The position numbers and the translations under genes were made by a program. Below the pieces are notes generated by a model. It did not search any database, was not told the origin of the DNA, and was given only the letters and a program-made list of their open reading frames with translations. DNA of 64,000 nt from Thermoanaerobaculia bacterium. GTDB lineage: Bacteria; Acidobacteriota; Thermoanaerobaculia; UBA5066. Every line of letters begins with the position of its first letter. The first letter of the stretch is position 1. Below, piece by piece: positions 23,990 through 42,680 of the stretch. Location: NCBI GenBank assembly GCA_046331465.1, contig JAXLQV010000003.1, positions 1,344,420-1,408,419 on the forward strand, read 5' to 3'.

Positions 23990-25750
23990 CTACCGGATCG
24001 TCAGCGGCGGCGCGGAGAGGACCCCTTCCTGCCGCTCCGCCTCCACCTGACGCAGGAGGGGCCGGAGGGGCTCGACGAGCCGCACGAGGGCGGTGAACGA
24101 GCTCTCGCCCTCCTCTTCTCCCGAGATCTTCGCCGCGAGCTCCTCGTACGGCGTCCGCTCCCGCGGGAAGACCGCCACCTTCACCTTCTCGCCCGCCGGG
24201 ATCTTCGCCGCCTCCTTCGCGAGCTTCAGCGCGGTCGGGAAGCCGCCGAGCTCGTCGACGAGGCCGAGCCCCTTCGCGTCCTCTCCGGTCCAGACGCGCC
24301 CCTTCGCGATCTCGAGGACCTTCTCCTTCGGGAGCTTCCGCCCCTCGGCGACCTTCGACGTGAAGTCGTCGTAGATCCGGTCGAGCCAGGCGTTGAAGCG
24401 GGCCCACTCGGCAGGGGAGAAGCTCCTCGACGCGTTCCACATGTTCGCGTTCGCGCCGACTTCGACCTGGTCGAACGTCAGCCCGACCTTCTCCCACATC
24501 GCGGGGGTCACCATCTTCCCGGCGAGGACGCCGATCGACGCGGTGATCGTGCCGGGCTGGGCGACGATCTTCGTCGCCGGTATCGAGACGAAGTAGCCGC
24601 CCGAGGCGGCCACGTCGCCCATCGAGATGATCACCGGCTTTCCGGCCTTCCTCGCGAGGACGACCTCGCGCCAGATCGTGTCGGAGGCGACGTAGGAGCC
24701 TCCGGGGCTCGAGACGCGGAAGAGGATCGCCGCGACGTCGCGGTCCTCGACGGCGGTCCGGATCGCCTTCGCGACCGTCTCCGATCCCATCGTCTGCCCG
24801 CCGGTGACCGGGTTGCCGCTGCTCCGGCCGCGGACGACGTTGCCGACGCCGTAGACGAGGGCGATCGTCCTCTTCCCCTCGGCGTGCGGCCGCCCCTCCC
24901 GCTTCAGGTAGGCCGGGAGTCCGAAGAGCTTCGAGTCCGTGCCCCCCTTCGCCCTGAGCTTCGCGAGGACCTCGTCCCGGTAGGCGAGGCCGTCGACGAG
25001 CTTCGCCTCGAGCGCCTCGGGCCCGAGGAACGGGCCGCGGTCGACGAGCGCGCGGACGTCGGCCTCCGTCATCTTCCGCCCCTCGGCGATCCCCTTCACC
25101 ATCTGCCCGTAGATCGACTCGAGGAGCGTCCTCGTCGCCTCCCGGTGCGCGTCGGTGAACTTCGTCTCCGTGTAGAGGTTCATCGCGTTCTTGAACTCGT
25201 GGCGCTGGCCGAACTCCGGCTTGACGCCGAGCTTGTCGAGCGTGCCGCGCAGGAACGGGCTCTCGCCGACGAGGCCGTTCAGGCCGACGTCTCCCGACGG
25301 CTGGAGCCAGATCTCGTCGAAGGCCGTCGCGAGGTAGTAGGAGCCGTTCCCCGGCGCGAACTCGCCGAACGTCTCCGCGTAGGCGACGGCGAACTTCTTC
25401 TTCGCCCGGAACGCCTTCACCGCGTCGCGGATCTCCTGGATCTCGGCGACGCCGAGCGGCGCGGCGCCGAGGCGCGCGACGAGGCCGACGACGTGCGGGT
25501 CGTCCCCCGCCTTCTCGAGGCCGTCGACGACGTCGCGCAGCGTGAAGGCCTTCTCGCCGCCGAAGACGGCGAAGGGGTTCTCGGGGGCCGCCTCGGGGAT
25601 CGCCCGCTCGAGGTCGAGCTCGAGGATCGCCCTCTTCGGGACCGACGGCTTCGCCTTCCCGGTGAGGAAGACGCCGGCGCCGACGAGGCCGGCGCCGAGG
25701 ACGACGATGACGAGGACGACGACGAGGAGACCCTTCCCGCCCTTGGCCAT
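23990..25750 (-). CDS. sppA: Signal peptide peptidase SppA, 67K type (S49 family)
   Basis: 586 aa; N-terminal TM; duplicated ClpP/crotonase-like S49 domains with SPGGS catalytic-serine motif and GDVAASGGY. Confidence 0.9.
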   Translation of the reverse strand: MAKGGKGLLVVVLVIVVLGAGLVGAGVFLTGKAKPSVPKRAILELDLERAIPEAAPENPFAVFGGEKAFTLRDVVDGLEKAGDDPHVVGLVARLGAAPLGVAEIQEIRDAVKAFRAKKKFAVAYAETFGEFAPGNGSYYLATAFDEIWLQPSGDVGLNGLVGESPFLRGTLDKLGVKPEFGQRHEFKNAMNLYTETKFTDAHREATRTLLESIYGQMVKGIAEGRKMTEADVRALVDRGPFLGPEALEAKLVDGLAYRDEVLAKLRAKGGTDSKLFGLPAYLKREGRPHAEGKRTIALVYGVGNVVRGRSSGNPVTGGQTMGSETVAKAIRTAVEDRDVAAILFRVSSPGGSYVASDTIWREVVLARKAGKPVIISMGDVAASGGYFVSIPATKIVAQPGTITASIGVLAGKMVTPAMWEKVGLTFDQVEVGANANMWNASRSFSPAEWARFNAWLDRIYDDFTSKVAEGRKLPKEKVLEIAKGRVWTGEDAKGLGLVDELGGFPTALKLAKEAAKIPAGEKVKVAVFPRERTPYEELAAKISGEEEGESSFTALVRLVEPLRPLLRQVEAERQEGVLSAPPLTIR

Positions 25751-25913: not shown

Positions 25914-26531
25914 ATGAAACGCGCCCGATGGATGACCCTTCCCCTCGTCGCCCTGGCCCTCGCCCTCCCCGCCCCCGCGGAGGAGAAGCCGGCCGCGAAG
26001 GCGGCGAAGCCCGCCGCCCCGTCGCAGGACGAGATGATGAAGGCCTGGACGGCCTACATGACCCCGGGCGAGCCCCACGCCCGCCTCGCGAAGCTCGCCG
26101 GGAGCTGGACGACGAAGACGAAGTCCTGGATGGACCCGGCCCAGCCCCCCGAGGAGACGACCGGCACGTGCGAGTTCCGGTCGGTCCTCGGCGGCCGCTA
26201 CGTCGAGCAGCGGTTCGAGGGGTCGATGATGGGCAAGCCGTTCTCCGGCATCGGCTTTACCGGCTTCGACAACGTCAAGAAGAGGTACGAGTCGTACTGG
26301 ATCGACACCTCCGGCACCGGGATGATGCTCATGACCGGGGCGCCGGACCCGTCGGGGAAGAAGACCGTCTACACCGGCTCGATGCTCGACCCGCTCACGA
26401 AGAAGGCGGTCGCGATGAAGGCGATCGAGACGAGGGCCGACGACGACAACGTCCAGTTCGACATGTGGGCGGCCGGGCCGGACGGGAAGATGGCGAAGGT
26501 CATGGAGATGACCTACACGCGGAAGAAGTAG
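25914..26531 (+). CDS. DUF1579 domain-containing secreted protein
   Basis: ATG 25914 with AGAGGAGG SD; signal peptide MKRARWMTLPLVALALALPAPA; 205 aa. Confidence 0.7.
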   Translation: MKRARWMTLPLVALALALPAPAEEKPAAKAAKPAAPSQDEMMKAWTAYMTPGEPHARLAKLAGSWTTKTKSWMDPAQPPEETTGTCEFRSVLGGRYVEQRFEGSMMGKPFSGIGFTGFDNVKKRYESYWIDTSGTGMMLMTGAPDPSGKKTVYTGSMLDPLTKKAVAMKAIETRADDDNVQFDMWAAGPDGKMAKVMEMTYTRKK

Positions 26532-26535
26532 GAGC

Positions 26536-28389
26536 TCACGGGGCGACCATCGCCTCCCAGACGGCGCGCGACATCTTCCGCGTCGCCTCGACGACCGCCT
26601 TCCGCCCCTCTTCGTTCGCGCCGAAGTCGGTCGCGAGGAGGACGAGGACGTACTCGCGCCCGTCGGGGAGGCGGACGACGGCCGAGTCGTGCTGCACCTT
26701 CGAGATGGTGCCGGTCTTGTGCGCGACGACGGCGCCCGCCTGCTTCGGGATGCCGGCCGGGATCTGGTCGTTGAACTCCTGCGCCGCGAGGATCTCGAAC
26801 GCGATGCGGCGCGACTCGGCCGAGAGCTTCGGCGTCCTCACGGCGGCCTCCATCAGCGCGGCCAGCCCGTCGGCGTCCGTCTCGTTCGAGATCCCGGCCT
26901 CATAGGCCTTCGTGTCCTCGACCATCCTCCGCACCTTCAGGGTCGGCGCGCCCAGCGCGTCGACGAAGCGCTGGACGTCCTTCGGCGGGCAGAGGCCGAG
27001 CATCAGGTTCGTCGCGACGTTCGAGGAGCGGACGATCATCTCCCGGGCGACGAAGTCGAGCCGCGCCGTCCCGCCGAGGAAGGGCGCGATCCGGTCATCG
27101 CCCCCCTTCTCGAGCTCGACGCGGAACGCGGAGCCGTCGACCATGCTCGGGAAGCAGTCGACGACGGGGACGCCGGTCGAGAGGGAGAGCGACCCCTCGT
27201 CGATCCTCCGGAGCGCCTCGAGGAGGACGGCCGTCTTCATCGTCGACGCCGCGTGCATCACGGTCGCCGCGTTCCGCTTCACCGTCACGCCGGTGCCGAG
27301 GTCCTTCACGACGATCCCGAACGTCGCCTTCGTCCCGGCGGCGATCGCGTCGAGCTCCTTCCCGAGCGCCTCGGCCTTCGCCTTCGTCAGGCCGGAGGGG
27401 CGCGGGGCGCCGGGGAGGGCGGCGAGGCGGCGGGCGTAGCGGAAGCGGGGCGCGAGCCGCTCGCTCTCGAAGGCCGTCTCCTTCGTCGACGGCACGCCGT
27501 ACTGCGTCGCCTGGAGGACCTCGCCGTCGCCCGCCCAGAACGCGACGTGGTCGATCTTCTCGGGAGTGCCGAAGAAGAGGAGGTCGCCCGGGGCGAGCTG
27601 GTCGCGCCGCACGGGGACGAGCTGCGGGTCGCGGAAGCACATCTCGGAGCTGTTGCGGAGGAGGAGGACCCCGTGCCTCTCGAGGACGCGCCAGACGAGG
27701 CCGGAGCAGTCGAAGCCCCACGGCGTCGTCCCGCCCCAGGTGTAGGGGGCGCCGAGGAAGCGGCGGGCCATCGCGAGCCAGGAGGCGGGGTCGAGGACGG
27801 GGGGCGCCTCGCGCGGACGCTCTGGGGCGACGTCGTCCGCCGAGACGAAGCCGTTCCGCCCGTCGGGGAGGAGGACCTCGCGCCAGGCGTGCTTCTCGGC
27901 CTCGAGCGTCCGGAGGCCTCCGAGCCGCGCGCCGAGCGGCGCGGTCGCGAGCGGGGGGGATTTCTCGAAGCTCGGCTCGCGGTAGACGTGCGCGAGGTTC
28001 GACGTCACCTCGAGCGGCTCCGCCGACGGGTCGGGGACCCCGGGGCGGAGGGCCGCGGCCTCGATCCAGCCGCGCGAGCCCGAACGGAGCTTCGCCCAGA
28101 CGAATCGCCCCTCGGCGCGAGAGGTCTCCACGGTCTCGCCGAGGATCGCCTGGTCGTCCACCGGCGCGAGCGTCTCCGGCCGCACGAGGAGGTTCGCGAA
28201 CGGGACGACGACGACCGCGGCGGAGGGGGCGGCCGCCTGCGGGCCGGGAGCCTGAGGGGCTGCGGCCGGAGCCGCGGCCTTCGACGCGGCCGTCGTCGCG
28301 GCCGGTGGCGTCTGCGCCGCGGCGGAGAGGGCGAGGAGGAACGCGAGGGGCGCGGCGAGGTGCGGCCGGGGAGCGCGGCGACGGCTCAT
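26536..28389 (-). CDS. Secreted tri-domain fusion: SH3b-like + NlpC/P60 (C40) peptidoglycan endopeptidase + class-A beta-lactamase-like serine hydrolase domain
   Basis: ATG at 28387-28389 in ORF 26536..29547; signal peptide; NlpC/P60 motifs GAPYTWGG...GFDCSGLV...GDLLFF...HVAF; C-terminal domain with class-A motifs STMK (SxxK), SSNVATN (SDN-like), KTG. Confidence 0.8.
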   Translation of the reverse strand: MSRRRAPRPHLAAPLAFLLALSAAAQTPPAATTAASKAAAPAAAPQAPGPQAAAPSAAVVVVPFANLLVRPETLAPVDDQAILGETVETSRAEGRFVWAKLRSGSRGWIEAAALRPGVPDPSAEPLEVTSNLAHVYREPSFEKSPPLATAPLGARLGGLRTLEAEKHAWREVLLPDGRNGFVSADDVAPERPREAPPVLDPASWLAMARRFLGAPYTWGGTTPWGFDCSGLVWRVLERHGVLLLRNSSEMCFRDPQLVPVRRDQLAPGDLLFFGTPEKIDHVAFWAGDGEVLQATQYGVPSTKETAFESERLAPRFRYARRLAALPGAPRPSGLTKAKAEALGKELDAIAAGTKATFGIVVKDLGTGVTVKRNAATVMHAASTMKTAVLLEALRRIDEGSLSLSTGVPVVDCFPSMVDGSAFRVELEKGGDDRIAPFLGGTARLDFVAREMIVRSSNVATNLMLGLCPPKDVQRFVDALGAPTLKVRRMVEDTKAYEAGISNETDADGLAALMEAAVRTPKLSAESRRIAFEILAAQEFNDQIPAGIPKQAGAVVAHKTGTISKVQHDSAVVRLPDGREYVLVLLATDFGANEEGRKAVVEATRKMSRAVWEAMVAP

Positions 28390-28407
28390 CGTGGGGATAA
28401 TCGTCGC

Positions 28408-29541
28408 ATGACCACGCCGCTGTCGCGCCGCGACCTCCTCGCCGTCTCCGGCTCCGTCGCCGCCTCCGCCCTCCTCCCGCGCCTCGCCGAGGCCGCGGCT
28501 CCGGCTCCCGCCGCCGCGACCGCGGCGACGCTCGACCTCGCGCCGATGCTCCTGAAGCTCCGGCACACCTGGACGATCTCGCGAAACTCCTCGAACGAGA
28601 AGAAGAACGGCCTCCTGACGCTGACGGCGGGCGGGATCACCGGCTACGGCGAGACCGCGGCGAACGTCCGCTACGGCCAGAGCTGGGAGAGCGGCGAGGC
28701 GGCCTTCGCGAAGGTGAAGGCGGCCTGCGCGGGGCTCTCGCCGTGGGAGCACCTCGCCTGGCTCGAGCGGGCCGAGGAGGCCGCGGGGGGCGACTCGCAG
28801 GTCGTCGCGGCGCTCGACATGGCACTCTGGGACTGGAAGGGAAAGGCGGTCGGCCAGCCCGTCTGGAGGCTCCTCGGCATCCCGACGGGGCGGATGGCGC
28901 AGACGACGTTCTCGATCGGCATCGACACGGCCGAGGCGATGAAGGAGAAGGTGAAGGAGGCGGAGCCCTATCCCCTCCTGAAGGTGAAGGTCGGGCTCGC
29001 GAACGACGAGGAGAACGTCACGGCGATCCGCTCCGTCACGAAGAAGCCGATCCGCGTCGACGCGAACGAGGGGTGGAAGAGCGCCGAGGAGGCGCTGAAG
29101 AAGATCGCCTGGCTGAAGACGATGGGGATCGAGTTCGTCGAGCAGCCGCTCCCGGCGGCGAAGAACGCCGAGATGAAGGCGGTGAAGGCCGGGTCGGCCC
29201 TCCCGCTCGTCGCGGACGAGTCGGTCCTCCACGTGAAGGACGTCCCCTCGCTCGTCGGCCTCTTCGACGGCGTGAACGCCAAGCTCGCCAAGTGCGGCGG
29301 GATCACCCGCGCGTACGAGCTCGCCGCGCTCGGCCGGGCGCTCGGCTTCAAGCTGATGCTCGGCTGCATGATCGAGTCGTCGCTCGGCATCGCGGCGGCC
29401 GTCGCCGTCGCGCCGCTCTTCGACTGGCTCGACCTCGACGGGAACCTGCTCGTCGCGAACGACCCGTGGAAGGGGCTGACGCTGAAGGAGGGGCGCTGGG
29501 AGCTCCCGGCGGCGCCGGGCCTCGGCGTCGTGCCGGCCTGA
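28408..29541 (+). CDS. L-Ala-D/L-Glu (dipeptide) epimerase, enolase superfamily (YkfB/YcjG-like), with predicted Tat signal peptide
   Basis: ATG 28408; RRDLLAVSGSVAASALLPRLAEAAAPA Tat-type signal; MR/MLE fold with conserved KVK(V)G, D-x-N-E, E, D, K metal/base residues; 377 aa. Confidence 0.8.
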   Translation: MTTPLSRRDLLAVSGSVAASALLPRLAEAAAPAPAAATAATLDLAPMLLKLRHTWTISRNSSNEKKNGLLTLTAGGITGYGETAANVRYGQSWESGEAAFAKVKAACAGLSPWEHLAWLERAEEAAGGDSQVVAALDMALWDWKGKAVGQPVWRLLGIPTGRMAQTTFSIGIDTAEAMKEKVKEAEPYPLLKVKVGLANDEENVTAIRSVTKKPIRVDANEGWKSAEEALKKIAWLKTMGIEFVEQPLPAAKNAEMKAVKAGSALPLVADESVLHVKDVPSLVGLFDGVNAKLAKCGGITRAYELAALGRALGFKLMLGCMIESSLGIAAAVAVAPLFDWLDLDGNLLVANDPWKGLTLKEGRWELPAAPGLGVVPA

Positions 29542-29560: not shown

Positions 29561-31177
29561 CTAGGGGGCCTCGTCCTCCTCCGGCGGCGGGACGAACGGG
29601 CGGAGCTTTTCCGCGAGCTCGAGACCGCGCCGGATCACCTCGTTCCAGGGGAAGAGGGCGCCGGGGTCGGGCTTGCGCCCGGGGGCGACGTGCTGGTGGC
29701 CGGCGATCCAGGGGGCCTCGAGGCCGAGCTGCGCCGTCAGGACGCCGACGACCCGCACGACCGTCTCGACCTGGGCGCGGGTGAAGGGATAGCGGTTTCC
29801 GTCGCCCGTGATCTCGACCCCGACCGAGTCGCGGTTCAGGACGGTGCGGCCGTGGAGGTCCGAGGAGCCCGCGTGCCACGCCCGGTGCTCGAGCGAGACG
29901 AACTGCCAGAGCCGGCCGCTCCTCCCGACGAGGAAGTGCGAGGAGACGAAGCTTGCCGGGTCGAGGAAGAGCGAGATGCACGTCTCGTCCTCGTCCATCG
30001 CGGTGTGGTGGAGGACGAGCGTGTCGAGCGGCCGGATCTTCTCGGGGTGCCACCCTTCCCAGAAGGAGTTCGGCATCGGGACCAGGCAGCCGTCGTTCGG
30101 GTCGCCGCCCGCCCTCTCCCAGAGCTCCCAGAAGAGGCGGTCCGCGGGGCGGAAGACGCGCTCGAGGCCGGGCGCACCTCCCCTCGCCTCGAGCGGCGTC
30201 ACCTCGAGGCGCGCGAGCGCCGGCGCGAGGGGCCGTTCCGCCGAGAGGTCGATGCGGGGGCGGTCGGGGAGGTCCCGCGACCACTCGTCGACGATCTCCC
30301 TCGCGATCTCGCCCATCGCGCGGTTCGCGCTCACGGCGGCGCCGGGCTTGGTCGGGATCCGGTCGGCGAACATCGCGAAGACGAACGTCCCCTTCGGCGT
30401 CGCGAGGACCCCCGAGTCGACCCTCACTCCGCTCATCGTCCCGGTCTTGCCGGCCCAGGAGGTCCCGGGGCGCGAGGCGAGGAGGCGCGGGATCCGGTCG
30501 GCCGTCCTCGGGTTCGCCGCGAGGCGCATCGCGACGCGGCTCGACTCCCTGTCGAGGAGCGTCCCGGTCGCGGCGCGACGCCAGAGCTCGGCGGTGTCGC
30601 GCGGCGTCATCCGGCCGAGGGGCTTCCAGGGGACGTCCTCCTCGGGGGAGCCGAGGTCGGGGATCCGCCCGACGAGCTCGATCCCGGCGAGCCCGAGCTC
30701 CGCCATGCGGCAGTTCACCGCCTCGGCGCCGAAGGCGTCAATGAAGTGGTTCGCGGCGGTGTTGTCCGAGAGCGCCATCATGAGACGCAGGAGGTCCCTC
30801 TCCGTCGGCGCGAGCCACGGCTCGAACTCGTCGAGGACCCCCGAGCCGGCGGCCACGGATCGGGGCGTCAGGCGCCAGCGCTGCTCGAGGTCGAGCGTCC
30901 CCTCGCGCTGCCGCGCGAGCGCCTCGACGAGGAGCGCGAGCTTGACGACGCTCGCCCCCTCGAACGTCTCCGTGTCCCGCCACCGGAGCTCCCGGCCGCT
31001 CTCGACGTGGAGGGCGACGATCCCCATCCGCGCGCCGCTCTCCTCCGCCCGCCGCGCGACGCGCCGGGCGAGCGTCTCGGACGCGGGGCGAACGGAGAGG
31101 CCCGGGGGTGGGGCGGTGGAGCAGGCGGCGAGGAGGAGGAGGAGCGCGGCGAGCGCCGCGGCCGGGCGGCAGGTCAC
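29561..31177 (-). CDS. Lipoprotein fusion: class-A beta-lactamase-like domain + N-acetylmuramoyl-L-alanine amidase (Amidase_2, AmpD/AmiD-like)
   Basis: GTG 31175-31177 overlapping GGDEF gene stop; lipobox LLLLLAACS; N-domain SVVK / SDNTAAN / KTGT class-A motifs; C-domain AmpD signature (HHTA...AWHAG...GVEI...GHQHVAPGRKPDPG). Confidence 0.8.
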   Translation of the reverse strand: MTCRPAAALAALLLLLAACSTAPPPGLSVRPASETLARRVARRAEESGARMGIVALHVESGRELRWRDTETFEGASVVKLALLVEALARQREGTLDLEQRWRLTPRSVAAGSGVLDEFEPWLAPTERDLLRLMMALSDNTAANHFIDAFGAEAVNCRMAELGLAGIELVGRIPDLGSPEEDVPWKPLGRMTPRDTAELWRRAATGTLLDRESSRVAMRLAANPRTADRIPRLLASRPGTSWAGKTGTMSGVRVDSGVLATPKGTFVFAMFADRIPTKPGAAVSANRAMGEIAREIVDEWSRDLPDRPRIDLSAERPLAPALARLEVTPLEARGGAPGLERVFRPADRLFWELWERAGGDPNDGCLVPMPNSFWEGWHPEKIRPLDTLVLHHTAMDEDETCISLFLDPASFVSSHFLVGRSGRLWQFVSLEHRAWHAGSSDLHGRTVLNRDSVGVEITGDGNRYPFTRAQVETVVRVVGVLTAQLGLEAPWIAGHQHVAPGRKPDPGALFPWNEVIRRGLELAEKLRPFVPPPEEDEAP

Positions 31178-33011: not shown

Positions 33012-34154
33012 ATGAATGGGTTGACGGCCGAGACACCTCCCTCCCCGGTCCCCTCCGGCCGGCTCGCCGCCCTCGACCTCTTCCGGGGCGCGACGGTGGC
33101 CGCGATGCTCTTCGTGAACAACCCGGGGAGCTGGTCGCACATCCTGCCGCCGTTCGAGCACGCCGAGTGGAACGGCTGCACCCCGACGGACCTCGTCTTC
33201 CCGTTCTTCCTCTTCATCGTCGGCACGGCCTCGGTCCTCTCGCTCGGGAAGCGCGCCGCTCAGGGGGCGAGCCGCGGGGCGCTCGCGCGGCACGCGGTGC
33301 GGCGGGGCGCGACGATCGTCCTCGTCGGCTGGGCGCTCACCGCCTTCCCGTTCAACCTGCAGCGTCTCCTGCACCTCCGGATCCCGGGCGTCCTCCCGCG
33401 CATCGGGGTCGTCTACGCGCTCGGCGCGCTGCTCCTCGTCGCCGCGCCGGTGCGCCGGAAGGCCCTCTTCCTCGGACTCGCCACGGCGCTCCTCCTCGCC
33501 CTCCACACGGCGCTCCTCTCCCTGCCGGGCTACGACCTGACGATCGAGGGGAACCTCCAGACGGCGATCGACCTCGCGCTCCTGAAGGGGCACCTCTGGA
33601 AGAAGGCGTGGGACCCGGAGGGGGTCCTCTCCACGCTGACCGCCCTCGCGACGATGCTGACGGGAGCGCTCACCGGGCTCCTCCTGACGTCGAAGGCCTC
33701 CCTGAAGGAGCGGCTCGCCGGCCTCGGCGCCGCGGGAGCCGCGGGCGTCGCGGCTGGGCTCGCGTGGCAGGCGCTCGGCCTCCCGCTCAACAAGGGGCTC
33801 TGGACCGGCTCCTACGTCCTCTTCACCTCGGGCGCGGCGTGCCTCTCTCTCCTCGCCGCGATCGCCGTCGTCGACCTCCTCGGCGTGAGGAGGCCCTTCG
33901 CCCCGCTCTTCACGTTCGGGACGAACCCGCTCCTCGCGTTCGTCCTCTCGGGCCTCCTCGCGAAGATCCTCGGCATGGTGAAGGTGGCCGGGGCGGACGG
34001 CCGCGTGTCGCTCACCTCGTTCCTCTACGAGCGGGTCTTCCTCCGCGTCGGCGACCCGTACCTCGCCTCGCATCTCCAGGCGCTCGCGTTCCTCGCGGTC
34101 ATCTGGGCGGTCCTCCGGTACTGCGAGAGGCGCGGCTGGTACTGGAAGGTCTGA
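33012..34154 (+). CDS. DUF1624 / HGSNAT-like (heparan-alpha-glucosaminide N-acetyltransferase catalytic-domain-like; NagX-like) multi-pass membrane acyltransferase family protein
   Basis: ATG 33012; LDLFRG motif near N-terminus, ~10 TM helices, typical of acyltransferase-3/DUF1624 NagX-like proteins found in amino-sugar loci. Confidence 0.65.
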   Translation: MNGLTAETPPSPVPSGRLAALDLFRGATVAAMLFVNNPGSWSHILPPFEHAEWNGCTPTDLVFPFFLFIVGTASVLSLGKRAAQGASRGALARHAVRRGATIVLVGWALTAFPFNLQRLLHLRIPGVLPRIGVVYALGALLLVAAPVRRKALFLGLATALLLALHTALLSLPGYDLTIEGNLQTAIDLALLKGHLWKKAWDPEGVLSTLTALATMLTGALTGLLLTSKASLKERLAGLGAAGAAGVAAGLAWQALGLPLNKGLWTGSYVLFTSGAACLSLLAAIAVVDLLGVRRPFAPLFTFGTNPLLAFVLSGLLAKILGMVKVAGADGRVSLTSFLYERVFLRVGDPYLASHLQALAFLAVIWAVLRYCERRGWYWKV

Positions 34155-34155
34155 C

Positions 34156-35157
34156 TCAGCCGGAGGCGAGGAGCCGGCGCGGCGTCTCCGAGGCGGCGTG
34201 CCGCGCCTCGTCGAACGTCGCCGCGCCGCAGGCAGCGAGCCTCTCCACGCAGTCGTCGAGGAGGGCGACGCTCCCCGCGAGGCCGCCCGAGGCGTTCCGG
34301 ACGGCCCCGGCGGAGACCGTGAGCGTCTCGCCCCAGACGGAGTAGTCCCCGTCGGCGAGGCCGGCGCAGGGCGCCGCGTCGCTGATCAGGACGAACCCCT
34401 CCGGCCCCTTGCAGCGCCGGACGAGGGCGAGCATCTCGGGGGAGAGGTGGTGGAGGTCGGCGATGACGTCGACCGTCGCGCCGTCGCGGAGGAGCCCCCA
34501 GCCGACCGGACCGGCGTCGCGGTGGTGGAGCGGCTTCATCGCGTTGCCGAAGTGGGTCATGTGCCGGGCGCCGCGCGCGAGCGCCGCGTCGAGCGTCGCG
34601 ACGTCGGCCTCGGTGTGGCCGAGGGCGACGACGAAGCCGCGGCGGACGAACGCCGAGACGAGGTCGAGGCCCCCCGGGATCTCGGGGGCCATCGTGACGA
34701 CGGGGCGGCCGGGGAGCTCGCCGACGGCGTCGAAGAACGCGTCGACGACCCGCGGGTCGCACCCGTCGAGGAGGCACGCGCGGTGGAGGGCGCCCGAGCG
34801 GTTCGGCGAGACGAACGGCCCCTCGAGGTGGATCCCGAGCGGCATCGCGCCGCGCCCGTCCCCCTCGCTCCGCGAGCGGACCCACGCGGAGAGGCGCGCG
34901 AGGAGCGGCGCGAGGTCGCCGAGGGGGACCGGGACGAGCGTCGGGACGAAGCCGGTCACGCCGCGCGCCTCGAGGCCGAGGGCGAGGCGGTCGAGCTCGG
35001 CCTCGCCCGCGGTCAGGACGTCGACGCCGAAGGCGCCGTGGATGTGGAGGTCGACGAGGCCGGCGGCGCTCAGGACGGCTCCTCCTCGAGGGCGCGTGCG
35101 ACGTTGCCGTTCCGCGCGGCGATCCACTCGCGCGCCTTCTCGAGAGGGAGGCTCCAC
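34156..35157 (-). CDS. nagA: N-acetylglucosamine-6-phosphate deacetylase (NagA), short-N-terminus variant; start uncertain (GTG 35157 or 35127)
   Basis: Metal-binding DLHIHG...HLEGP...HTEA...HFGNAM...D motifs of amidohydrolase NagA; N-terminal ~25 aa Arg-rich and overlaps murQ 3' end. Confidence 0.75.
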   Translation of the reverse strand: MEPPSREGARVDRRAERQRRTRPRGGAVLSAAGLVDLHIHGAFGVDVLTAGEAELDRLALGLEARGVTGFVPTLVPVPLGDLAPLLARLSAWVRSRSEGDGRGAMPLGIHLEGPFVSPNRSGALHRACLLDGCDPRVVDAFFDAVGELPGRPVVTMAPEIPGGLDLVSAFVRRGFVVALGHTEADVATLDAALARGARHMTHFGNAMKPLHHRDAGPVGWGLLRDGATVDVIADLHHLSPEMLALVRRCKGPEGFVLISDAAPCAGLADGDYSVWGETLTVSAGAVRNASGGLAGSVALLDDCVERLAACGAATFDEARHAASETPRRLLASG

Positions 35158-35915
35158 CGCTCCGAGACGAGTGCCAGGGGGAGCTCCCAGTCGGCCTTAA
35201 CGAGGAGCCGCTCGGCGGGCTCGGGGGGGAGCGCGAGGAGGCGGCCGAGGATGTCGATCGCGCGCCGCTTCAGCTTCGCGTTCGTCGGGCGCATCGCGAC
35301 CATCTCGCCCCGCCAGACGAGGCCGCGCCGCGCCATGACGGCCGTCGAGAGCATGTTGAGGACGAGCTTCTGCGCCGTCCCCGCCTTCATCCGCGTCGAG
35401 CCGCGGAGCACCTCGGGCCCCGTCTCGACGACGAGGGCGAGGTCGGCGATCGACGCGAGCCGCGAGCCGGGCACGCCGACGAGGGCGACCGCGAGCGCCC
35501 CGATTCCCTTCCCCCAGCGGAGCGCGCCGGCGACGTACGGCGTCGCGCCGCTCGCGGCGATCCCGAGGACGACGTCGCGCGCCGTGACGCCCGCCATCTT
35601 CACGTCCTCGGCCCCCTGCGCCTCGTCGTCCTCCGCCCCCTCGACGGCGTGGACGAGCGCCTCGCTTCCGCCGGCGACGATCCCGGTGACGAGGCGGGGG
35701 GGGACGCCGAAGGTCGGCGGGAGCTCCGAGGCGTCGAGGACGCCGAGCCGTCCGCTCGTCCCGGCGCCGGCGTTGATCCACTTCCCGCCGGCGTCGAGGC
35801 GCGCGGCGATCTCGTCGGCGGCGTGCGCGACCTCCGGGAGGATCCTCCCGACGGCGCGGACCGCCTCCAGGTCGGCCTCGTGGATCGCCGCGAGGAGGGC
35901 GAGCGTGTCGGTCAA
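35070..35915 (-). CDS. murQ: N-acetylmuramic acid 6-phosphate etherase MurQ (SIS domain)
   Basis: 281 aa; near-identical core motifs to E. coli MurQ (GAGTSGRLGVLDASELPPTFGV, HAVEGAEDD, RMKAGTAQKLVLNMLST); ATG overlaps kinase stop. Confidence 0.9.
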   Translation of the reverse strand: MTDTLALLAAIHEADLEAVRAVGRILPEVAHAADEIAARLDAGGKWINAGAGTSGRLGVLDASELPPTFGVPPRLVTGIVAGGSEALVHAVEGAEDDEAQGAEDVKMAGVTARDVVLGIAASGATPYVAGALRWGKGIGALAVALVGVPGSRLASIADLALVVETGPEVLRGSTRMKAGTAQKLVLNMLSTAVMARRGLVWRGEMVAMRPTNAKLKRRAIDILGRLLALPPEPAERLLVKADWELPLALVSERWSLPLEKAREWIAARNGNVARALEEEPS

Positions 35916-36847
35916 GGCGTCCCCTCGGCGAGGGCGAGCCGGATCGCGCCGATCTCCGGGACGTGCGCGGGCGGACCGAGGCGCGCCCGCGGCGCGCCCG
36001 CGAGGAGCCGCTCGCGCAGCGGGGCGAGGACGAGCTCGCCCGCGACGAAGACGCCGCCGACGGTCGCCACCGTCACCTCGTCCTGCGCGATGCCGAGCTT
36101 GCGGAGGACGGTGAGCGACGTGAGCGCGAGCTCGCCCGCCGCCCAGCGGAGGATCTCGAGGGCGATCCCGTCGCCGTCCCGGGCGGCGTCGAGGACGACC
36201 GGGAAGTAGGCCGCCACGTCGGTCGGCCCCGCGTCGGGACGGAAGAGCCTCCGCACCATCTCGACGGCCGACCGCGTCCCCTCCGTCGAGTGGAGCCCCT
36301 CGCGCATCTTCGTCCGCGGTCCGCGCCCGTCGACGTCGCGCGCGACGGCGGCGAGGCCGCGCCGCGCGATTTCGGAGGCGGAGCCCTCGTCGCCGATGAG
36401 CGCGCCCCAGCCGCCCGCCCGCTCCTCGAGGCCGTGGGAGTTCCGGCCGAAGCAGATCGCCCCCGTCCCCGCGATGAGGACGGCGCCCGAGTCGGCGACC
36501 GGGTCGCGGAGCGCCCCGGCGAGCGCGATCCGCGCGTCCGTCGTGACCCGGATCCTGCCGGCGCCGTAGACGGCCTCGAGCGCCGAGACGAGGCGCCCCT
36601 TCATCGCCGACGCCTCGACGCCGGCGAGGCCGCAGGAGACGACGGCGACGTCGGCGCGCGCCGCACCGGCCGCCTCGAGGGCATCGTCGACGGCCTCCGT
36701 GACGGACTGGACGAGGCGCGGGACGGGGACGGTCGAGGCGTTCGCGGGGCCCGACGCGCCGCGGCCGAGGGCGAGGAGGTCGGAGGCGGTGACGACGGCG
36801 CGGGTCCGGGTGCCGCCGCCGTCGACGCCGACGTAGAGGCTGGGCAT
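35912..36847 (-). CDS. BadF/BadG/BcrA/BcrD-type ATPase family sugar kinase, predicted N-acetylglucosamine/N-acetylmuramic acid kinase (MurK/NagK-like)
   Basis: ATG 36845-36847; LYVGVDGGGTRTR phosphate-1 motif; ASKHA fold; genomic coupling to murQ. Confidence 0.75.
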   Translation of the reverse strand: MPSLYVGVDGGGTRTRAVVTASDLLALGRGASGPANASTVPVPRLVQSVTEAVDDALEAAGAARADVAVVSCGLAGVEASAMKGRLVSALEAVYGAGRIRVTTDARIALAGALRDPVADSGAVLIAGTGAICFGRNSHGLEERAGGWGALIGDEGSASEIARRGLAAVARDVDGRGPRTKMREGLHSTEGTRSAVEMVRRLFRPDAGPTDVAAYFPVVLDAARDGDGIALEILRWAAGELALTSLTVLRKLGIAQDEVTVATVGGVFVAGELVLAPLRERLLAGAPRARLGPPAHVPEIGAIRLALAEGTP

Positions 36848-36938
36848 GCGGAGATCGTAACGCCGAGGAAGCCGTCTCCGACGCTCCGGAGGAACATCCC
36901 GCGGCGCGCCCGCCGCGACGGCTCTAACATCCGCGCCG

Positions 36939-38795
36939 ATGAGCGCGCGCCGCCACCTCCCGCTTCTCCTCGCGGCGCTGGCGGTCCTCGGCGCCCGGCT
37001 CCTCGTCGTCGCAGCGCTCGGGGACCACCCGCTCCTCCAGCCCGCCGACGGGCTCGACACGGGGGCCTACGTCGCCCTCGCGCGGAAGATCGCGGGCGGG
37101 GACGTCCTCCTCCGCTCCGTCCCGGCGCCGTTCTTCGTCTCGCCGCTCTACGCCTGGTTCCTCGGCGCGGTGCTCGCGGCGACCGGCGGCTCTCTCCACG
37201 CGGTCCTCTGGGTCCAGGCGCTCCTCGGGGCAGCCGCGGCCTGGCTCGCGGGAGACGCGGCGCGCCGCCTCCTTGACGATCGGGCCGCCGTCCCGGCCGC
37301 GGTGTTTCTGGGCCTCACGGGCGTCGTGGCCTTCCACGAAGCGCTCCTTCTTCAGGCCGCGCTCGACCCGTTCCTCACTGCTCTCGCGCTCTGGCTCCTC
37401 GTCCGGGCGCTCGAGGGCGCGCCACGGACACGTGCCTTCCTTCTCGCCGGTCTCGCGCTCGGCGTCCTCTCCCTGAACCGGCCGAACGTCCTCCCGTGGG
37501 CCGCGCTCGTCGTCGCGCTCCTCGTCTTCGCGCGAGGCTTCCGGGCGGGAACGCGCCCCGCGGCGGCTTTCCTCCTCGGCGCGGCACTCGGCGTCCTCCC
37601 CGCGGCGGCCCGGAACCTCGCCGTCTCGGGCGAGCCGGTCCTCGTCTCCTCCCACGGCGGGCTCAACCTCCTCGTCGGGAACGGCCCCGGCGCAAGCGGC
37701 GTCTACCGCTGGCTCGACGGCATCACGCCCGACATCGCCGGCCAGGCGGCGGACGCGAAGCGGGTCGCCGAGGCCGAGGCGGGACGGACTCTCTCCGCGC
37801 GGGAAGTCTCGGCGCATTTCGCGGCGAAGGCGTGGGAGTGGATCGCCGCGAACCCGGGCGCGGCAGCGCGCCTCTTCGCGAGGAAGTGCTGGTACGTCCT
37901 CTCGGGTGACGAGGCGCCGCTCAACTTCAGCTTCCCGTGGTACCGGCGCGAGGCGGGTGTCCTGAAGCTTCTCTTCGTCGGGCCCGGCCTCCTCGTCCCG
38001 CTCGGAGGAGCCGGTCTCGTCCTTCTCCTCCTCGGGAGCGGCCGCCTCCCGCGCCGCGACGCCCTCGTCTGGGCCTCGTTCGCCCCCGCGTACGTCCTCC
38101 TCGTCGCGGCCTTCTTCGTCGCGACCCGCTACCGCCTGCCGCTCTACGTCCCGCTCGCGACGGCGGGCGGGGGCGGGCTCGTACTGCTCCTCGACGCTCT
38201 CCGCGCTCGCGACGTCCGCCGCCTCGCCCTCGCTGGCTCCGTGGCGCTCCCTCTCGCGGCGGTCTCGCTCTGGCCGACCGGCCTCGATGACGGATCGTCC
38301 GAGGAGGAGACGCAGTGGATCCTCGTCCGCGTCGAGCGGGGGGACGTCGCCGAGGCCGTGCGCCGGGCGGAGTCGCTCGCGAAGAGCCACCCGCAGCCGG
38401 GCGTCCTCTGGTTCCGCCTCGGCCAGGCCGAGGCGCAGGCGGGGCGGCTCGACGACGCCGCCGATGCCCTCCGCCGCTCGCTCGGGATCGACGCGGGACA
38501 GGTCGAGACCGAGAGGGTCCTCGCAGCCGTCCTCGAGAGGCGCGGGATGGAACGGGCCGCTGCGCGCGACCTCGCGGGAGCGGCGGCCGACCTCGAGGAG
38601 GTTGCCCGCCTCGACCGCGCAAACGCGACCGTGCGCCTCAACCTCGCGGCCGTCCTCGCGGAGCGGGGCGACCTCGACCGGGCCCGGGTCCTGGCCTCCG
38701 AGGCGCTCGCGCTGAAGCCCGGGTACGGGAAGGCCGAGGCGCTCCTCCGGGCGCTCGGACCCGAGCGGACCGGGCCACCTCCGCGCGGCCGCTGA
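36939..38795 (+). CDS. Glycosyltransferase family 39 (ArnT/PMT-like) membrane protein with C-terminal TPR repeats
   Basis: 618 aa; multiple N-terminal TM helices; GT-C features; C-terminal TPR repeats (AEAQAGRLDDAADALRRSLGID...). Confidence 0.7.
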   Translation: MSARRHLPLLLAALAVLGARLLVVAALGDHPLLQPADGLDTGAYVALARKIAGGDVLLRSVPAPFFVSPLYAWFLGAVLAATGGSLHAVLWVQALLGAAAAWLAGDAARRLLDDRAAVPAAVFLGLTGVVAFHEALLLQAALDPFLTALALWLLVRALEGAPRTRAFLLAGLALGVLSLNRPNVLPWAALVVALLVFARGFRAGTRPAAAFLLGAALGVLPAAARNLAVSGEPVLVSSHGGLNLLVGNGPGASGVYRWLDGITPDIAGQAADAKRVAEAEAGRTLSAREVSAHFAAKAWEWIAANPGAAARLFARKCWYVLSGDEAPLNFSFPWYRREAGVLKLLFVGPGLLVPLGGAGLVLLLLGSGRLPRRDALVWASFAPAYVLLVAAFFVATRYRLPLYVPLATAGGGGLVLLLDALRARDVRRLALAGSVALPLAAVSLWPTGLDDGSSEEETQWILVRVERGDVAEAVRRAESLAKSHPQPGVLWFRLGQAEAQAGRLDDAADALRRSLGIDAGQVETERVLAAVLERRGMERAAARDLAGAAADLEEVARLDRANATVRLNLAAVLAERGDLDRARVLASEALALKPGYGKAEALLRALGPERTGPPPRGR

Positions 38796-38915: not shown

Positions 38916-41666
38916 TCAGAAGCTGAAGAGCGCCGAGAGGGTGAACCGCCGCGGCGAGGTCCAGCTCGTCGCCTGGCCGAACGTCGGGTTCGGCTGCTTG
39001 GTCCCCTGCGGGCCCAGCGTGCTCGCCGGGTTCCCGTCGACGTACGGATCGAGGTACTCGGTAGAGCTGACGCCCGTGACCGTCTGGCTGTCGAAGAGGT
39101 TCTGGACGCGCCCCTCGAGGCGGAGCGAGTTGCCGCCGCCCAGCTTGAAGTTGTAGGCGAGCAGCATGTCGAGGTTCGTCCGGGTCGGGAGGCGGCGCGA
39201 GCCGGCTGGCTCGAGGTAACGGCCGTAGGTGGTGCTCGGCGTGGCGCCGCGGGCCTCCCAGGGGGTCCCGCTCTGGACGCGGAGGTAGCCGCCGAGCGTG
39301 AAGCCGTAGACGTCGTAGCTCGCCATCAGCTTGAAGATGTGCGGCCGGTCCTGGAGGAGCGTGCCGTACCGGTTCGGCTCCGCGCTGTTGAACCCCGGCT
39401 CGTCCTCGAGGTACGACGAGGTGCTGTACTGGCCGGCCGAGAAGTCCTCGTCCCAGTTCCCGCGGAGGCGGCTGTAGGTGTAGCTGACGCTCGCGTACCA
39501 GTTGTCGGCCTGGCGCTTCGTCACTTCGAACGAATAGCCGCGGTAGATGCGGGTCGCGTCCGGGAACGTCTTCGCCTGGAACGAGCCGAAGTAGTTGTTC
39601 GGGTCGACGGGCGTGTCCTCGAACGGGTTGTTGAGGCTCTTGTACTGGTAGTGGACGTCGAAGGAGAGGACCTTGCCGACCGGAGCTTCGTAGCCGAGGA
39701 CGTACTCGTCCTGGGTGGGGGACGTCAGGTCGGACGGGATGTACTTGCCGGACGAGGAGCCGCGGAACGAGGTGGAGATGAAGGCACCGGTGTCCCTGCG
39801 CCAGTAGGTCTGGTTCTCGCGGATCCGGTAGGGGGCGAACGACCGGAGGGTGTTCTTCTGGTCGAGGCCGGCGTACCTCCCGTAGTTCGCGTAGACCTTG
39901 TCGCCCGTCAGGAGCTCGGTGTTGTAGACGATGCCGATGCGGGGCTGGACCTGGTCGCCCCACCGGAAGGTCATGAAGTTGTAGCGCATCTCTTCCGTCA
40001 GCGGCGGGGCGGTCGTGGACTGGCTGCAGACCATCCCCGGCTCGCAGATCTGGGCGAAGTCGTCGTAGTTGAAGAGGACGCCGACCGTCGCCGAGAGGCG
40101 CTTCCAGGTGACCGTGTCCTGGAGGAACGCGGAGTAGGTTCGGGCCTTCCCGAGCTGCTCCGGCTGGAATTCGTAGTAGCGGGCCCGGACGGCCGCGACG
40201 CCCCCCGTCGAGGTGTAGATCAGGGTCCCCCAGCCGTTCGACTGCCGGGCGAAGGTGAGGTCGACGAACTCGGCGCCGCCGCCGACCTTGATCTGGTGCT
40301 GCGTCTCGCCCCAGTCGAGGAACTGGCTCGCGACGAGCTTCACCTCGTCGCGGGTGTAGTTCTCGCCCGTGTTCGTGTACGGGTAGACGCCGGTGTTGCC
40401 GCCGCCCCGCGTCGGGTCGTAGTAGCCGCCGTAGGCGCCCAGGTTCGTCGTCTGGGGGAGCGGGCTCGGCCGGTTCGTCAGGATTGTGTTGGCCTGGACC
40501 GTCGGGTTGTCGGTCGAGTGGACGTACTTGAGCTCGACGAGCGTGTTCTGGCCCGCGAACCAGTTCGCCGCGAAGTTCCCGATGTAGTTCGTGTTGTCCT
40601 GGCCCCAGCCCGCGGAGGCCACGTCGTAGGCATTGTCGAAGCCGTTCGTCGTCTTGGTCGGGAGGCCGCGGAACCCGGCGTTGAAGAGCCAGTGGTCGCC
40701 GGCGTAGGCGGTCAGCTTCCCGAAGTAGTCCCAGTTCGTCGTCTTCGTGTCGGGCTGCGTCGTCGTGACGCCGCTGATCGTCGCCGACTGGCCGCTCGTC
40801 TTCGTGTCCGAGTAGCGGGCCGAGACGTACCCGAAGAGGGTGTCCTTGACGATGGGGAAGCCGAGGCTCGCCGCACCGTTCCAGGTGTCGACGTCGGAGG
40901 AGACTCCGTGCTCGTTCGCGGACTGGAACGACGAGGGGCGCCCCTCGACGCGGAAGCTCCCGTGGAACTCGTTCGTCCCCGACTTCGTGACGGCGTTCAC
41001 GACGGCGCCCGTCGTCCGGCCGGACTCGGCCGAGATGGCGCCCGTCTTCACGTTCACGTCGGCGATGTCGAGCTCGTTCGTCTCGACGCCGAGGTTGCCG
41101 TAGCCCCCGTTCGTGATGTTGACGCCGTCGATGAGGTACTTGTTCTCCTGGCGGGTCCCTCCGGCGACGGCGACGTAGCCGCTGCTGCCGTCGGATGCTG
41201 GGGCGCTCGGGATCAGGTTGAGGAGGCCCTCGTAGCTCCGGGCGACCGGGAGCTGCCGGACGTCCTGAGACGCGAAGTTCGTCGCGACCTCGGTCGACTT
41301 CTGGTCGACGCTCGCGGCCGTAACCTCGACGGTGACCGCGGTCGATCCCTTCAGAACGAGGTCGACCTGGTAGTCGCGGTCGATCTGGACGTCGACGGTC
41401 TTGCTCGCCTGGCCGAGTCCCTGGAGGGCGGCCTCGACGGTGTACTTGCCGGGGAGGAGCCGCTGGAAGTTGTAGGCGCCGTTTGATCCGGTGACGAACG
41501 AGCGGCCCGCCGGGAGCTGGGCTCCCGAGACCTTCACCATGACGCCGGGGAGCGCGCCGCCGTTCGCGTCGGCGACCTTCCCCGAGATGGAGCCCGTCTC
41601 GCCCGCGAACGCCACGGACGCGGCGACGAGCAGGACGACGGCCATCAGAATTCGGAACGACCTCAT
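38916..41666 (-). CDS. TonB-dependent receptor-like outer membrane protein with N-terminal carboxypeptidase-regulatory-like (CarbopepD_reg) domain
   Basis: ATG 41664-41666 preceded by GGAGAGGAGAGG; signal peptide; CarbopepD_reg-type N-terminus (GSISGKV...GALPGVMVKV); C-terminal beta-barrel ending in aromatic residue (F). Confidence 0.85.
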   Translation of the reverse strand: MRSFRILMAVVLLVAASVAFAGETGSISGKVADANGGALPGVMVKVSGAQLPAGRSFVTGSNGAYNFQRLLPGKYTVEAALQGLGQASKTVDVQIDRDYQVDLVLKGSTAVTVEVTAASVDQKSTEVATNFASQDVRQLPVARSYEGLLNLIPSAPASDGSSGYVAVAGGTRQENKYLIDGVNITNGGYGNLGVETNELDIADVNVKTGAISAESGRTTGAVVNAVTKSGTNEFHGSFRVEGRPSSFQSANEHGVSSDVDTWNGAASLGFPIVKDTLFGYVSARYSDTKTSGQSATISGVTTTQPDTKTTNWDYFGKLTAYAGDHWLFNAGFRGLPTKTTNGFDNAYDVASAGWGQDNTNYIGNFAANWFAGQNTLVELKYVHSTDNPTVQANTILTNRPSPLPQTTNLGAYGGYYDPTRGGGNTGVYPYTNTGENYTRDEVKLVASQFLDWGETQHQIKVGGGAEFVDLTFARQSNGWGTLIYTSTGGVAAVRARYYEFQPEQLGKARTYSAFLQDTVTWKRLSATVGVLFNYDDFAQICEPGMVCSQSTTAPPLTEEMRYNFMTFRWGDQVQPRIGIVYNTELLTGDKVYANYGRYAGLDQKNTLRSFAPYRIRENQTYWRRDTGAFISTSFRGSSSGKYIPSDLTSPTQDEYVLGYEAPVGKVLSFDVHYQYKSLNNPFEDTPVDPNNYFGSFQAKTFPDATRIYRGYSFEVTKRQADNWYASVSYTYSRLRGNWDEDFSAGQYSTSSYLEDEPGFNSAEPNRYGTLLQDRPHIFKLMASYDVYGFTLGGYLRVQSGTPWEARGATPSTTYGRYLEPAGSRRLPTRTNLDMLLAYNFKLGGGNSLRLEGRVQNLFDSQTVTGVSSTEYLDPYVDGNPASTLGPQGTKQPNPTFGQATSWTSPRRFTLSALFSF

Positions 41667-42619: not shown

Positions 42620-42680
42620 GAAGTGCGCCGGCCCCGGCGCGATAATGAGATTTCCGTTCAATTCGGAGGGAGGATTCCAC

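Follow-up and report, generated by a model that had tools for sequence, protein, structure and literature searches.

This analysis concerns a gene in a 64,000-nucleotide stretch of contig JAXLQV010000003.1 (hereafter the window; G+C ~73%) from a Thermoanaerobaculia bacterium. The gene lies on the minus strand at 26536..28389 and encodes a protein of 617 residues in which a YkfC/DvLysin-type NlpC/P60 cysteine peptidase is joined to a PBP-A-like serine hydrolase domain. Both parent families are well known; the fusion is conserved and new, and full-text literature searches found no description of an NlpC/P60 plus PBP-A-like fusion. With moderate confidence, we read the product as an exported bifunctional stem-peptide hydrolase, predicted to combine a DD-peptidase with a gamma-D-Glu-meso-diaminopimelate (mDAP) endopeptidase in a muropeptide catabolism cluster. 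A first-pass annotation of the same DNA had suggested a two-site murein peptidase with one gamma-D-Glu-mDAP and one D-Ala-directed site. This stays the best reading, with the synteny described below placing the gene in murein-peptide processing.

The open reading frame (ORF) runs from an ATG at 28389 to a stop at 26536-26538 and its 617 codons contain no internal stop. In order, all on the minus strand, it encodes a signal peptide, an Ala/Pro-rich linker, SH3b1, SH3b2, NlpC/P60 and the PBP-A-like serine hydrolase. The N-terminus is of the Sec type (MSRRRAPRPH followed by LAAPLAFLLALSAAA); inspection of the sequence places the predicted signal peptide at residues 1-26 (28312..28389) and the low-complexity linker at residues 27-55 (28225-28311), and a hydrophobic N-terminus is kept in homologues of the protein. 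The two SH3b domains (residues ~56-120 and ~121-192; 27814..28224) were delimited by phmmer, the beta-strand pattern of the AlphaFold2 model, Foldseek and column statistics, the Pfam SH3_16 match at 68-114 falling below threshold. The NlpC/P60 (C40) domain at 27415..27801 is defined by PF00877 (NLPC_P60, residues 213-297, E 7.8e-20, 71.3 bits against a cut-off of 23) and by invariant columns. The C-terminal domain of class A beta-lactamase fold (residues 341-617; 26539..27369) is defined by PF13354 (Beta-lactamase2, residues 358-585, E 3.1e-39, 135 bits) together with NCBIfam, alignments and Foldseek. The AlphaFold2 model has a mean pLDDT of 80, exceeding 90 in the serine domain and dropping below 50 at residues 1-51. 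Every motif that the first-pass annotation had quoted for a Cys-His core followed by a second catalytic domain is present in this single ORF: GFDCSGLV at 225-232, HVAF at 281-284, STMK at 382-385, SSNVATN at 455-461 and HKTGT at 557-561. That annotation had also allowed for the ORF being two genes or carrying a frameshift. This fails, because independent loci in at least 63 species-level genomes, as well as over 120 protein clusters, show the same unbroken ORF, and the fusion is therefore not an assembly artefact.

A protein search returned 311 matches, and domain content and identity were read for the 120 listed. All 120 contain both PF13354 and PF00877, at 55-92% identity to the target. Among these listed matches, the named sources are metagenome-assembled genomes (MAGs) of Holophagales, Thermoanaerobaculia and Vicinamibacteria, and the database names are 'serine hydrolase' or 'C40 family peptidase', with 'beta-lactamase class A' used by JGI. 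A genome scan with one genome per species gave 371 related stretches, from which 79 distinct loci were kept. The fusion of NlpC/P60 and serine domain is found in 63 of the 79, nearly all from Acidobacteriota, with one from a Planctomycetota MAG. Since the full-length architecture occupies about six clusters when the library is clustered at 50% identity (P0038, P0121, P0123, P0125, P0126 and fragments) and yet recurs in those 63 loci, the family is narrow but deeply conserved. Identity to the Thermoanaerobaculia orthologues is similar in both halves (~64% for the cysteine domain, ~62% for the serine domain). Residue columns were counted over 121 fusion proteins: Cys228, His281, Lys558 and Gly560 are present in 121/121, and Ser382, Lys385, Ser455 and Asn457 in 120/121, at identities down to 39%. 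Two MAGs with the cluster at 86% and 55% identity (loci L004 and L033) bear the labels Gammaproteobacteria and Acidithiobacillales; since the cluster is otherwise acidobacterial in its spread, these contigs are probably mis-binned or mislabelled. Moreover, in several long-contig MAGs (L001/L021, L004, L005, L055, L065 and L066) the epimerase, fusion or amidase gene appears as two adjacent tblastn segments, most likely through long-read indel errors and not as true pseudogenes.

The C-terminal half contains the class A motifs S382-T-M-K385 (Ser382 at 27244-27246), S455-S-N457 and K558-T-G560. Ambler position 166 is occupied by Val490 (26920-26922), which lies opposite Glu166 of PER-2 and Leu158 of PBP-A in HMMER alignments. 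This is the column at which wild-type PBP-A (2j7v) and its L158E mutant (2j9o) differ. A MAFFT alignment that included TEM-1 as the reference for numbering agrees on Val490; the PBP-A and PER-2 alignments were taken from HMMER output. Over the 121 fusion proteins position 166 is Val in 109, Leu in 8, Ile in 2, Met in 1 and Arg in 1, and never Glu; Asp492, nearby, is almost invariant. The NCBIfam bla_class_A model gives 86.7 bits and does not reach its cut-off of 200. Because Glu is missing from position 166 family-wide and the class A model is not reached, we take the domain, from its sequence, to be a PBP-like acyl-serine hydrolase and neither a beta-lactamase nor a degenerate fold. The class A beta-lactamase-like catalytic domain first proposed thus stands as to fold and acylation residues and falls as to beta-lactamase. 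The degenerate, non-catalytic C-domain that had been named as a possible refutation is contradicted by the conservation of the acylation residues in 120/121 proteins.

The closest solved match of this domain is PBP-A (phmmer E 1.2e-12, ~24% identity), and the top Foldseek matches are likewise the PBP-A structures 2j9o and 2j7v (TMt 0.84). PBP-A is a proven DD-carboxypeptidase and DD-endopeptidase that works without an omega-loop Glu, and it damages peptidoglycan when expressed in the Escherichia coli periplasm (PMC11189452). A second relevant protein is LRA-5, which is class-A-like, comes from soil and has its closest relatives among Acidobacteria (PMC12777564); its score against the target serine domain is ~25 bits. 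Wild-type LRA-5 (Val166) has no beta-lactamase phenotype, and resistance needs both V166E and Y69Q (PMC12777564). Both PBP-A (Leu158) and LRA-5 (Val166) need an engineered Glu for even weak beta-lactamase activity (PMC11189452, PMC12777564).

At 35-44% identity, most relatives of the serine domain are exported proteins that stand alone (~300 residues), and the names of cluster members are only 'serine hydrolase' or 'beta-lactamase class A'. Many of the other relatives are fused to further domains (among them P0144, P0184, P0160, P0215, P0180 and P0224). Four clusters carry Peptidase_M14, two of them with weak MpaA-like matches. Other partners are Amidase_3, NamZ exo-muramidase, PG_binding_1, an AstE/AspA-type domain, a DdpX-like M15 D-Ala-D-Ala dipeptidase, an amidohydrolase matching NCBIfam PRK09061, class-C-type PF00144 domains, and M1 and S9 peptidases. 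The serine domain thus seems to be a module that combines promiscuously with enzymes of peptidoglycan and D-amino-acid peptide metabolism. Its independent fusions to two unrelated types of gamma-D-Glu-mDAP amidase, NlpC/P60 in the target and M14 in other proteins, suggest that the serine reaction is functionally coupled to that cleavage.

For the N-terminal half, the catalytic residues are Cys228 (27706-27708), His281 (27547-27549) and Gln293 (27511-27513), the third position being Gln in 114, Glu in 6 and His in 1 of the fusion proteins. In phmmer searches against solved structures this half matched 3npf over residues 51-294 (E 4e-19), then 3pvq/4r0k and 3h41, with E-values to BoYkfC, BtYkfC and BcYkfC ranging from 4e-19 to 1e-16. 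Foldseek with the target model returned the same structures (4r0k, TMt 0.70; 3npf, 0.68-0.71; 3h41, 0.67) over ~290-320 alignment columns. Sequence and model together thus indicate an SH3b1-SH3b2-NlpC/P60 architecture of the YkfC fold. BoYkfC, BtYkfC and BcYkfC are proven gamma-D-Glu-A2pm amidases (PMC4600125).

A closer inspection of the substrate-binding positions points away from a strict YkfC. In YkfC enzymes, a Tyr of SH3b1 (BoYkfC Y80, BcYkfC Y118) and an Asp of the NlpC/P60 domain (BoYkfC D221, 18 residues past the catalytic Cys) bind the free amine of L-Ala; the same Tyr also blocks N-acetylmuramic acid (MurNAc), and the pair restricts these enzymes to stem peptides whose N-terminal L-Ala is free (PMC4600125). 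DvLysin has Ala and Asn at the two positions and digests peptidoglycan, muropeptides and free peptides (PMC4600125); its residues (3m1u) were taken from that paper and not from an alignment to the target. In three independent alignments the YkfC Tyr (BoYkfC 'DDYTGW', BcYkfC 'EGYPGW') falls on Ser105 of the target ('SGSRGW', 28075-28077) and the YkfC Asp ('PRDAS') on Asn246 ('LRNSS', 27652-27654). Over the fusion family, the Tyr position is occupied by Ser, Glu, Thr, Asn and others, with Tyr in only 4 proteins, and the Asp position by Asn in 117 and Asp in 4. The two positions co-vary: the distant clusters P0121, P0123, P0125 and P0126 keep Tyr and Asp and have Glu as the third triad residue, and the main clade pairs Asn with a residue that is small or polar and has Gln as the third. 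These residues point to an intact DL-endopeptidase of YkfC fold with the specificity residues of a broad-spectrum lysin. Because the Tyr/Asp gatekeepers are replaced by Ser105/Asn246, this half is predicted to accept MurNAc-linked stems besides free ones. The change from Tyr/Asp to a small residue and Asn resembles a naturally occurring switch from YkfC to lysin specificity.

The fusion gene is divergently paired with a gene at 28408..29541 on the plus strand, which encodes an enolase-superfamily dipeptide epimerase of the L-Ala-D/L-Glu type (Pfam MR_MLE_N/C and TAT_signal, NCBIfam and PDB matches). The best PDB match is 3iji/3ijl/3ijq (238 bits), which we take to be the Bacteroides thetaiotaomicron dipeptide epimerase BT1313. 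It begins at query residue 45, and the first ~40 residues (28408-28530) have no counterpart in 3iji. They contain the twin-arginine motif SRRDLL, within a family pattern of S/T-R-R-x-L-L, a hydrophobic stretch and AxA, and this twin-arginine translocation (TAT) motif is shared by the orthologues of Acidobacteriota, whereas the Planctomycetota locus (L059) lacks it. No account of a TAT-exported dipeptide epimerase turned up in full-text searches of the literature, so that the putative exported enolase-superfamily enzyme appears to be previously undescribed. In loci with enough flank, the epimerase gene is adjacent and divergent to the fusion gene in 43/55 and lies farther upstream in 9.

The pairing with a YkfB-like epimerase across about 18 bp, as first annotated, was confirmed: the epimerase ATG is at 28408 and the spacer (28390..28407, CGTGGGGATAATCGTCGC) is exactly 18 bp. 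From the sequence and the orthologous loci, this spacer is conserved and contains candidate back-to-back -10 boxes. GATAAT at 28396-28401 is separated by 6 nt from the epimerase ATG; overlapping it on the other strand, GATTAT at 28402-28397 is separated by 7 nt from the ATG of the fusion gene. ATAAT occurs 6-7 nt upstream of the epimerase ATG in 21/21 orthologous loci inspected, despite genomes of more than 70% G+C, and in Thermoanaerobaculia a further, separate element (TGnGAGAAT or TGGAAT) lies upstream of the fusion-gene ATG at a distance of 6 nt. A scan of 28150-28650 for consensus sigma-70 promoters and terminators found nothing. Because the -10-like boxes stand 6-7 nt from the ATGs, the arrangement suggests leaderless mRNAs for the two genes, and also that the -35 regions lie within the coding sequence of the partner gene. 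The earlier expectation that divergent promoters overlap the coding regions is reasonable.

Beyond the epimerase lies a second fusion gene (29561..31177, minus strand), assigned by Pfam and PDB matches to a lipoprotein with a PBP-A/LRA-5-like domain and an AmiD/AmpDh2-like Amidase_2 domain (Beta-lactamase2, E 3.4e-43; Amidase_2, E 1.7e-28). A second beta-lactamase-like fusion on an exported protein nearby, as previously noted, is therefore real, its export being predicted from the lipobox LLAAC. Its serine domain has S76-V-V-K, S137-D-N and K244-T-G, with Ile172 at position 166, and its best PDB matches are 4ewf and LRA-5 (8eo5, 64.5 bits). LRA-5 thus resembles this domain more than that of the target (64.5 against ~25 bits). 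The amidase domain, with Zn ligands H390/H494/D504, is closest to the periplasmic lipoprotein amidases AmpDh2 (4bj4) and AmiD (2bh7). Conservation over 33 orthologues is 100% for the SxxK, SDN and KTG residues and for the zinc ligands, with Ile at position 166. A gene of this type follows beyond the epimerase in 34/48 loci. The two serine domains of the cluster are ~27% identical and belong to different subfamilies, ruling out a recent local duplication as the source of both. The stop of an upstream PAS-GGDEF gene (31174-31176) abuts the GTG start of the second fusion at 31177.

Genes for the sugar part lie further along: NagX-like (33012-34154, plus strand), NagA-like (34156-35157, minus strand) and NagK-like (35912-37060, minus strand), all three named from NCBIfam matches below the equivalog cut-off. 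NagX is upstream of the fusion gene in 33/40 loci with enough flank, across Holophagales and Thermoanaerobaculia. As a set, the NagX/NagA/NagK-like genes correspond to a Shewanella-type N-acetylglucosamine (GlcNAc) pathway, here syntenic with peptide-processing genes in two acidobacterial classes. MurQ-, NagZ- and AmpG-type genes were not seen among the scanned genes of this stretch.

Domain identities, residue conservation, the lack of Glu166 and synteny are thus directly observed. Taken together, they are consistent with the following route, in which we infer the export of the proteins, which bonds are cut and in what order. The serine site would act as a DD-peptidase, taking the last D-Ala off pentapeptides and/or opening D-Ala-mDAP cross-bridges, and would so turn cross-linked or untrimmed stems into substrates for the neighbouring cysteine site. 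The cysteine site (Cys228/His281/Gln293) would then cleave the gamma-D-Glu-meso-diaminopimelate bond on free or MurNAc-linked stems. The AmiD-like fusion would free stems from MurNAc, the TAT-exported epimerase would turn L-Ala-D-Glu into L-Ala-L-Glu, and the Nag proteins would process the sugar part. This conserved acidobacterial cluster would probably dismantle muropeptides, supplied by the cell's own wall turnover or by scavenging, for the most part beyond the cytoplasm.

Several observations weigh against this reading. The assignment of the serine domain follows from phmmer and Foldseek at an identity to PBP-A of only ~24%, its SxN motif is SSN and not SDN, and it has a subfamily-specific insert, F-x-S-x-VDGS-x-F, at residues 413-422; its specificity could therefore differ. 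At 14 loci that match in the serine domain only (L068-L081), there are no linked epimerase, amidase or NlpC/P60 genes, and 9 of these encode standalone proteins of ~280-320 residues. A nearby epimerase is also absent in 3/55 loci. The export of the target, the second fusion and the epimerase was read from sequence by eye only. Close to the active site of the cysteine domain (residues 216-225 and 244-253) the pLDDT of the AlphaFold2 model drops below 50, and the model gives nothing reliable on the mutual placement of the domains. With the Tyr/Asp pair lost, the cysteine domain could act as a lysin on intact sacculi. Moreover, Gram-negative wall turnover yields mainly tetrapeptides, which a DD-carboxypeptidase cannot trim, and no S66 (LdcA/YkfA) gene was seen in the part of the window scanned, ~18.9-44.9 kb.

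The last two points, the dominance of tetrapeptides and a cluster with no LdcA/YkfA homologue, favour a different activity for the serine domain, namely that of an LD-carboxypeptidase or dipeptidase cutting the mDAP-D-Ala bond. Such an enzyme would turn tetrapeptide into tripeptide, or cleave the mDAP-D-Ala that the cysteine domain sets free, and would take the role of YkfA/LdcA in Bacillus ykfABCD and in E. coli recycling. We know of no SxxK penicillin-recognising enzyme with LD-carboxypeptidase specificity. It would be consistent with this activity that some relatives are fused to weakly MpaA-like M14 domains, as MpaA acts on the tripeptide and prior D-Ala trimming would fit; for Bacteroides, too, Xu et al. 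postulated that the amidase is fused to a domain removing D-Ala. However, the nearest characterised relative, PBP-A, is a DD-peptidase, and BoYkfC and BtYkfC favour tetrapeptides (PMC4600125), so that trimming is not needed before the cysteine step. On this evidence we consider an LD-specific serine site unlikely. The loss of the gatekeepers raises another alternative, in which the protein combines DD-endopeptidase and DL-endopeptidase cuts to remodel or lyse intact sacculi, as an autolysin in growth or division or as a weapon against other bacteria, with no part in fragment catabolism. A DvLysin-type pair replaces the YkfC residues in 117/121 fusion proteins, DvLysin itself digests peptidoglycan, PBP-A harms E. 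coli peptidoglycan from the periplasm, and the target is predicted to be exported. Yet the close association, conserved over many loci, with genes for a dipeptide epimerase, for an AmiD-like amidase and for GlcNAc catabolism fits catabolism and not morphogenesis, the c-clip domain of DvLysin is lacking from the target, and no cell-division or toxin-delivery genes were seen among the neighbours of the fusion gene. A lytic function is thus rather improbable.

The two remaining alternatives deny the serine domain a peptidase activity, and both are poorly supported. One makes it non-catalytic, either as a module that binds stems with a D-Ala-D-Ala end and directs or controls the cysteine peptidase, or else as a beta-lactam sensor. 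Enzymatically inactive class-A-fold proteins do exist (BlaB of Streptomyces cacaoi is among the fold matches) and wild-type LRA-5 is inactive on beta-lactams, but the acylation residues are kept throughout the fusion family, bar one protein, and also in the independent fusion-partner families, which makes an inert domain very improbable. The sensing function in particular, which had been put forward in the first-pass annotation, was rejected: Pfam found no transmembrane, other membrane or signalling module in the target. The other alternative, a genuine class A beta-lactamase conferring resistance, can point to the fold, to the SxxK, SxN and KTG motifs and to the label 'beta-lactamase class A' on JGI homologues. 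It is hardly credible given the absence of Glu166 across the family, the bla_class_A score well under its cut-off, and the need of both PBP-A and LRA-5 for an engineered Glu even for weak activity.

Four further genes lie around the cluster. A DUF1579 gene (25914-26531, plus strand) is convergent with the fusion gene, their stops being 4 nt apart, and is syntenic in Holophagales loci. A gene for an S49 (SppA-like) peptidase (23990-25750, minus strand) is nearby in most Holophagales loci. A few kb off on the other side are a TonB-dependent receptor with a carboxypeptidase-regulatory-like domain (38916-41705, minus strand) and an S46 dipeptidyl-peptidase (42645-44864, plus strand), which might serve uptake and further peptide breakdown.

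The cluster context provides a concrete hypothesis for the natural role of Val166 class-A-like proteins such as LRA-5, which have so far been studied only as beta-lactamase precursors. It is also a warning that such genes are not to be annotated as resistance determinants. In the cysteine half, the natural Tyr/Asp to small/Asn change parallels the switch in specificity that was engineered between YkfC and DvLysin. An apparently all-exported route, epimerase included, bears on wall recycling or scavenging by the abundant Acidobacteriota of soil and sediment. A wider proposal, possible but doubtful at present, is that Glu166-less class-A-fold domains of the PBP-A/LRA-5 kind are a widespread modular family of peptidoglycan-fragment peptidases, joined to amidases, gamma-D-Glu-mDAP endopeptidases (NlpC/P60 or M14), NamZ muramidases and D-Ala-D-Ala dipeptidases, and that they drive a complete extracytoplasmic muropeptide-to-dipeptide pathway in Acidobacteriota, with the TAT-exported enolase-superfamily epimerase as one of its steps. 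If true, a long-sought physiological role would have been found for the 'proto-beta-lactamase' lineage behind class A beta-lactamases, and one of the two serine domains might be the first SxxK enzyme with LD-carboxypeptidase specificity.

Comparison with characterised proteins places each half of the target close to, and apart from, a known type. The YkfC enzymes (BcYkfC, 3h41; BoYkfC, 3npf; BtYkfC BT_1314, 3pvq/4r0k) have the SH3b1-SH3b2-NlpC/P60 fold and the catalytic Cys and His in common with it and are exported, as predicted for the target, and like it found beside a YkfB-type dipeptide epimerase. However, the target has an extra C-terminal serine-hydrolase domain, Gln in place of their His as the third triad residue, and Ser105/Asn246 in place of Tyr/Asp. 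DvLysin of Desulfovibrio vulgaris (3m1u) has the core fold in common and the small residue and Asn at the specificity positions, but carries an N-terminal c-clip domain, has no serine domain and is only weakly similar in sequence (E 0.0017-0.007). PBP-A (Tll2115 of Thermosynechococcus elongatus) resembles the C-terminal half in its class A fold, its SxxK, SxN and KTG motifs and a hydrophobic residue in place of Glu166; it differs in being a standalone cyanobacterial protein with SDN and without the VDGS insert, and it prefers amidated (D-iGln) stems. LRA-5 has Val at position 166, like the target, but is a single-domain protein, whereas the fold in the target sits within a peptidoglycan-processing fusion.

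At the level of the pathway no new kind of system is seen, as the logic of amidase, DL-endopeptidase and L-Ala-D/L-Glu epimerase is already established. In Bacillus subtilis ykfABCD, the YkfC endopeptidase and the YkfB epimerase are co-located for murein peptide catabolism. D-Ala removal in that operon is by a separate S66 LD-carboxypeptidase, YkfA, and none was seen in the target cluster. Because their best solved relatives are 4r0k (BT_1314) and 3iji, the target and its epimerase are, by sequence and structure matches, the probable counterpart of the Bacteroides BT1314/BT1313 pair. Xu et al. assigned the Bacteroides pair to a proposed route of periplasmic recycling, of which an amidase fused to a D-Ala-removing domain is also a part. 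The Bacteroides thetaiotaomicron route consists of the BT1087 hydrolase-AmiA fusion, the YkfC BT1314 and the epimerase BT1313, and its logic is like that of the target cluster: an amidase with a putative D-Ala-removing domain, a gamma-D-Glu-mDAP endopeptidase and an epimerase, outside the cytoplasm. The parts differ. The accessory domain is an alpha/beta-hydrolase in Bacteroides and PBP-A-like in the target cluster, and the amidase is of the NlpC/P60 type (AmiA) in the former and a zinc Amidase_2 in the latter. An endopeptidase with a serine domain of its own and an epimerase with an explicit TAT signal are features of the target cluster and not of the Bacteroides route.

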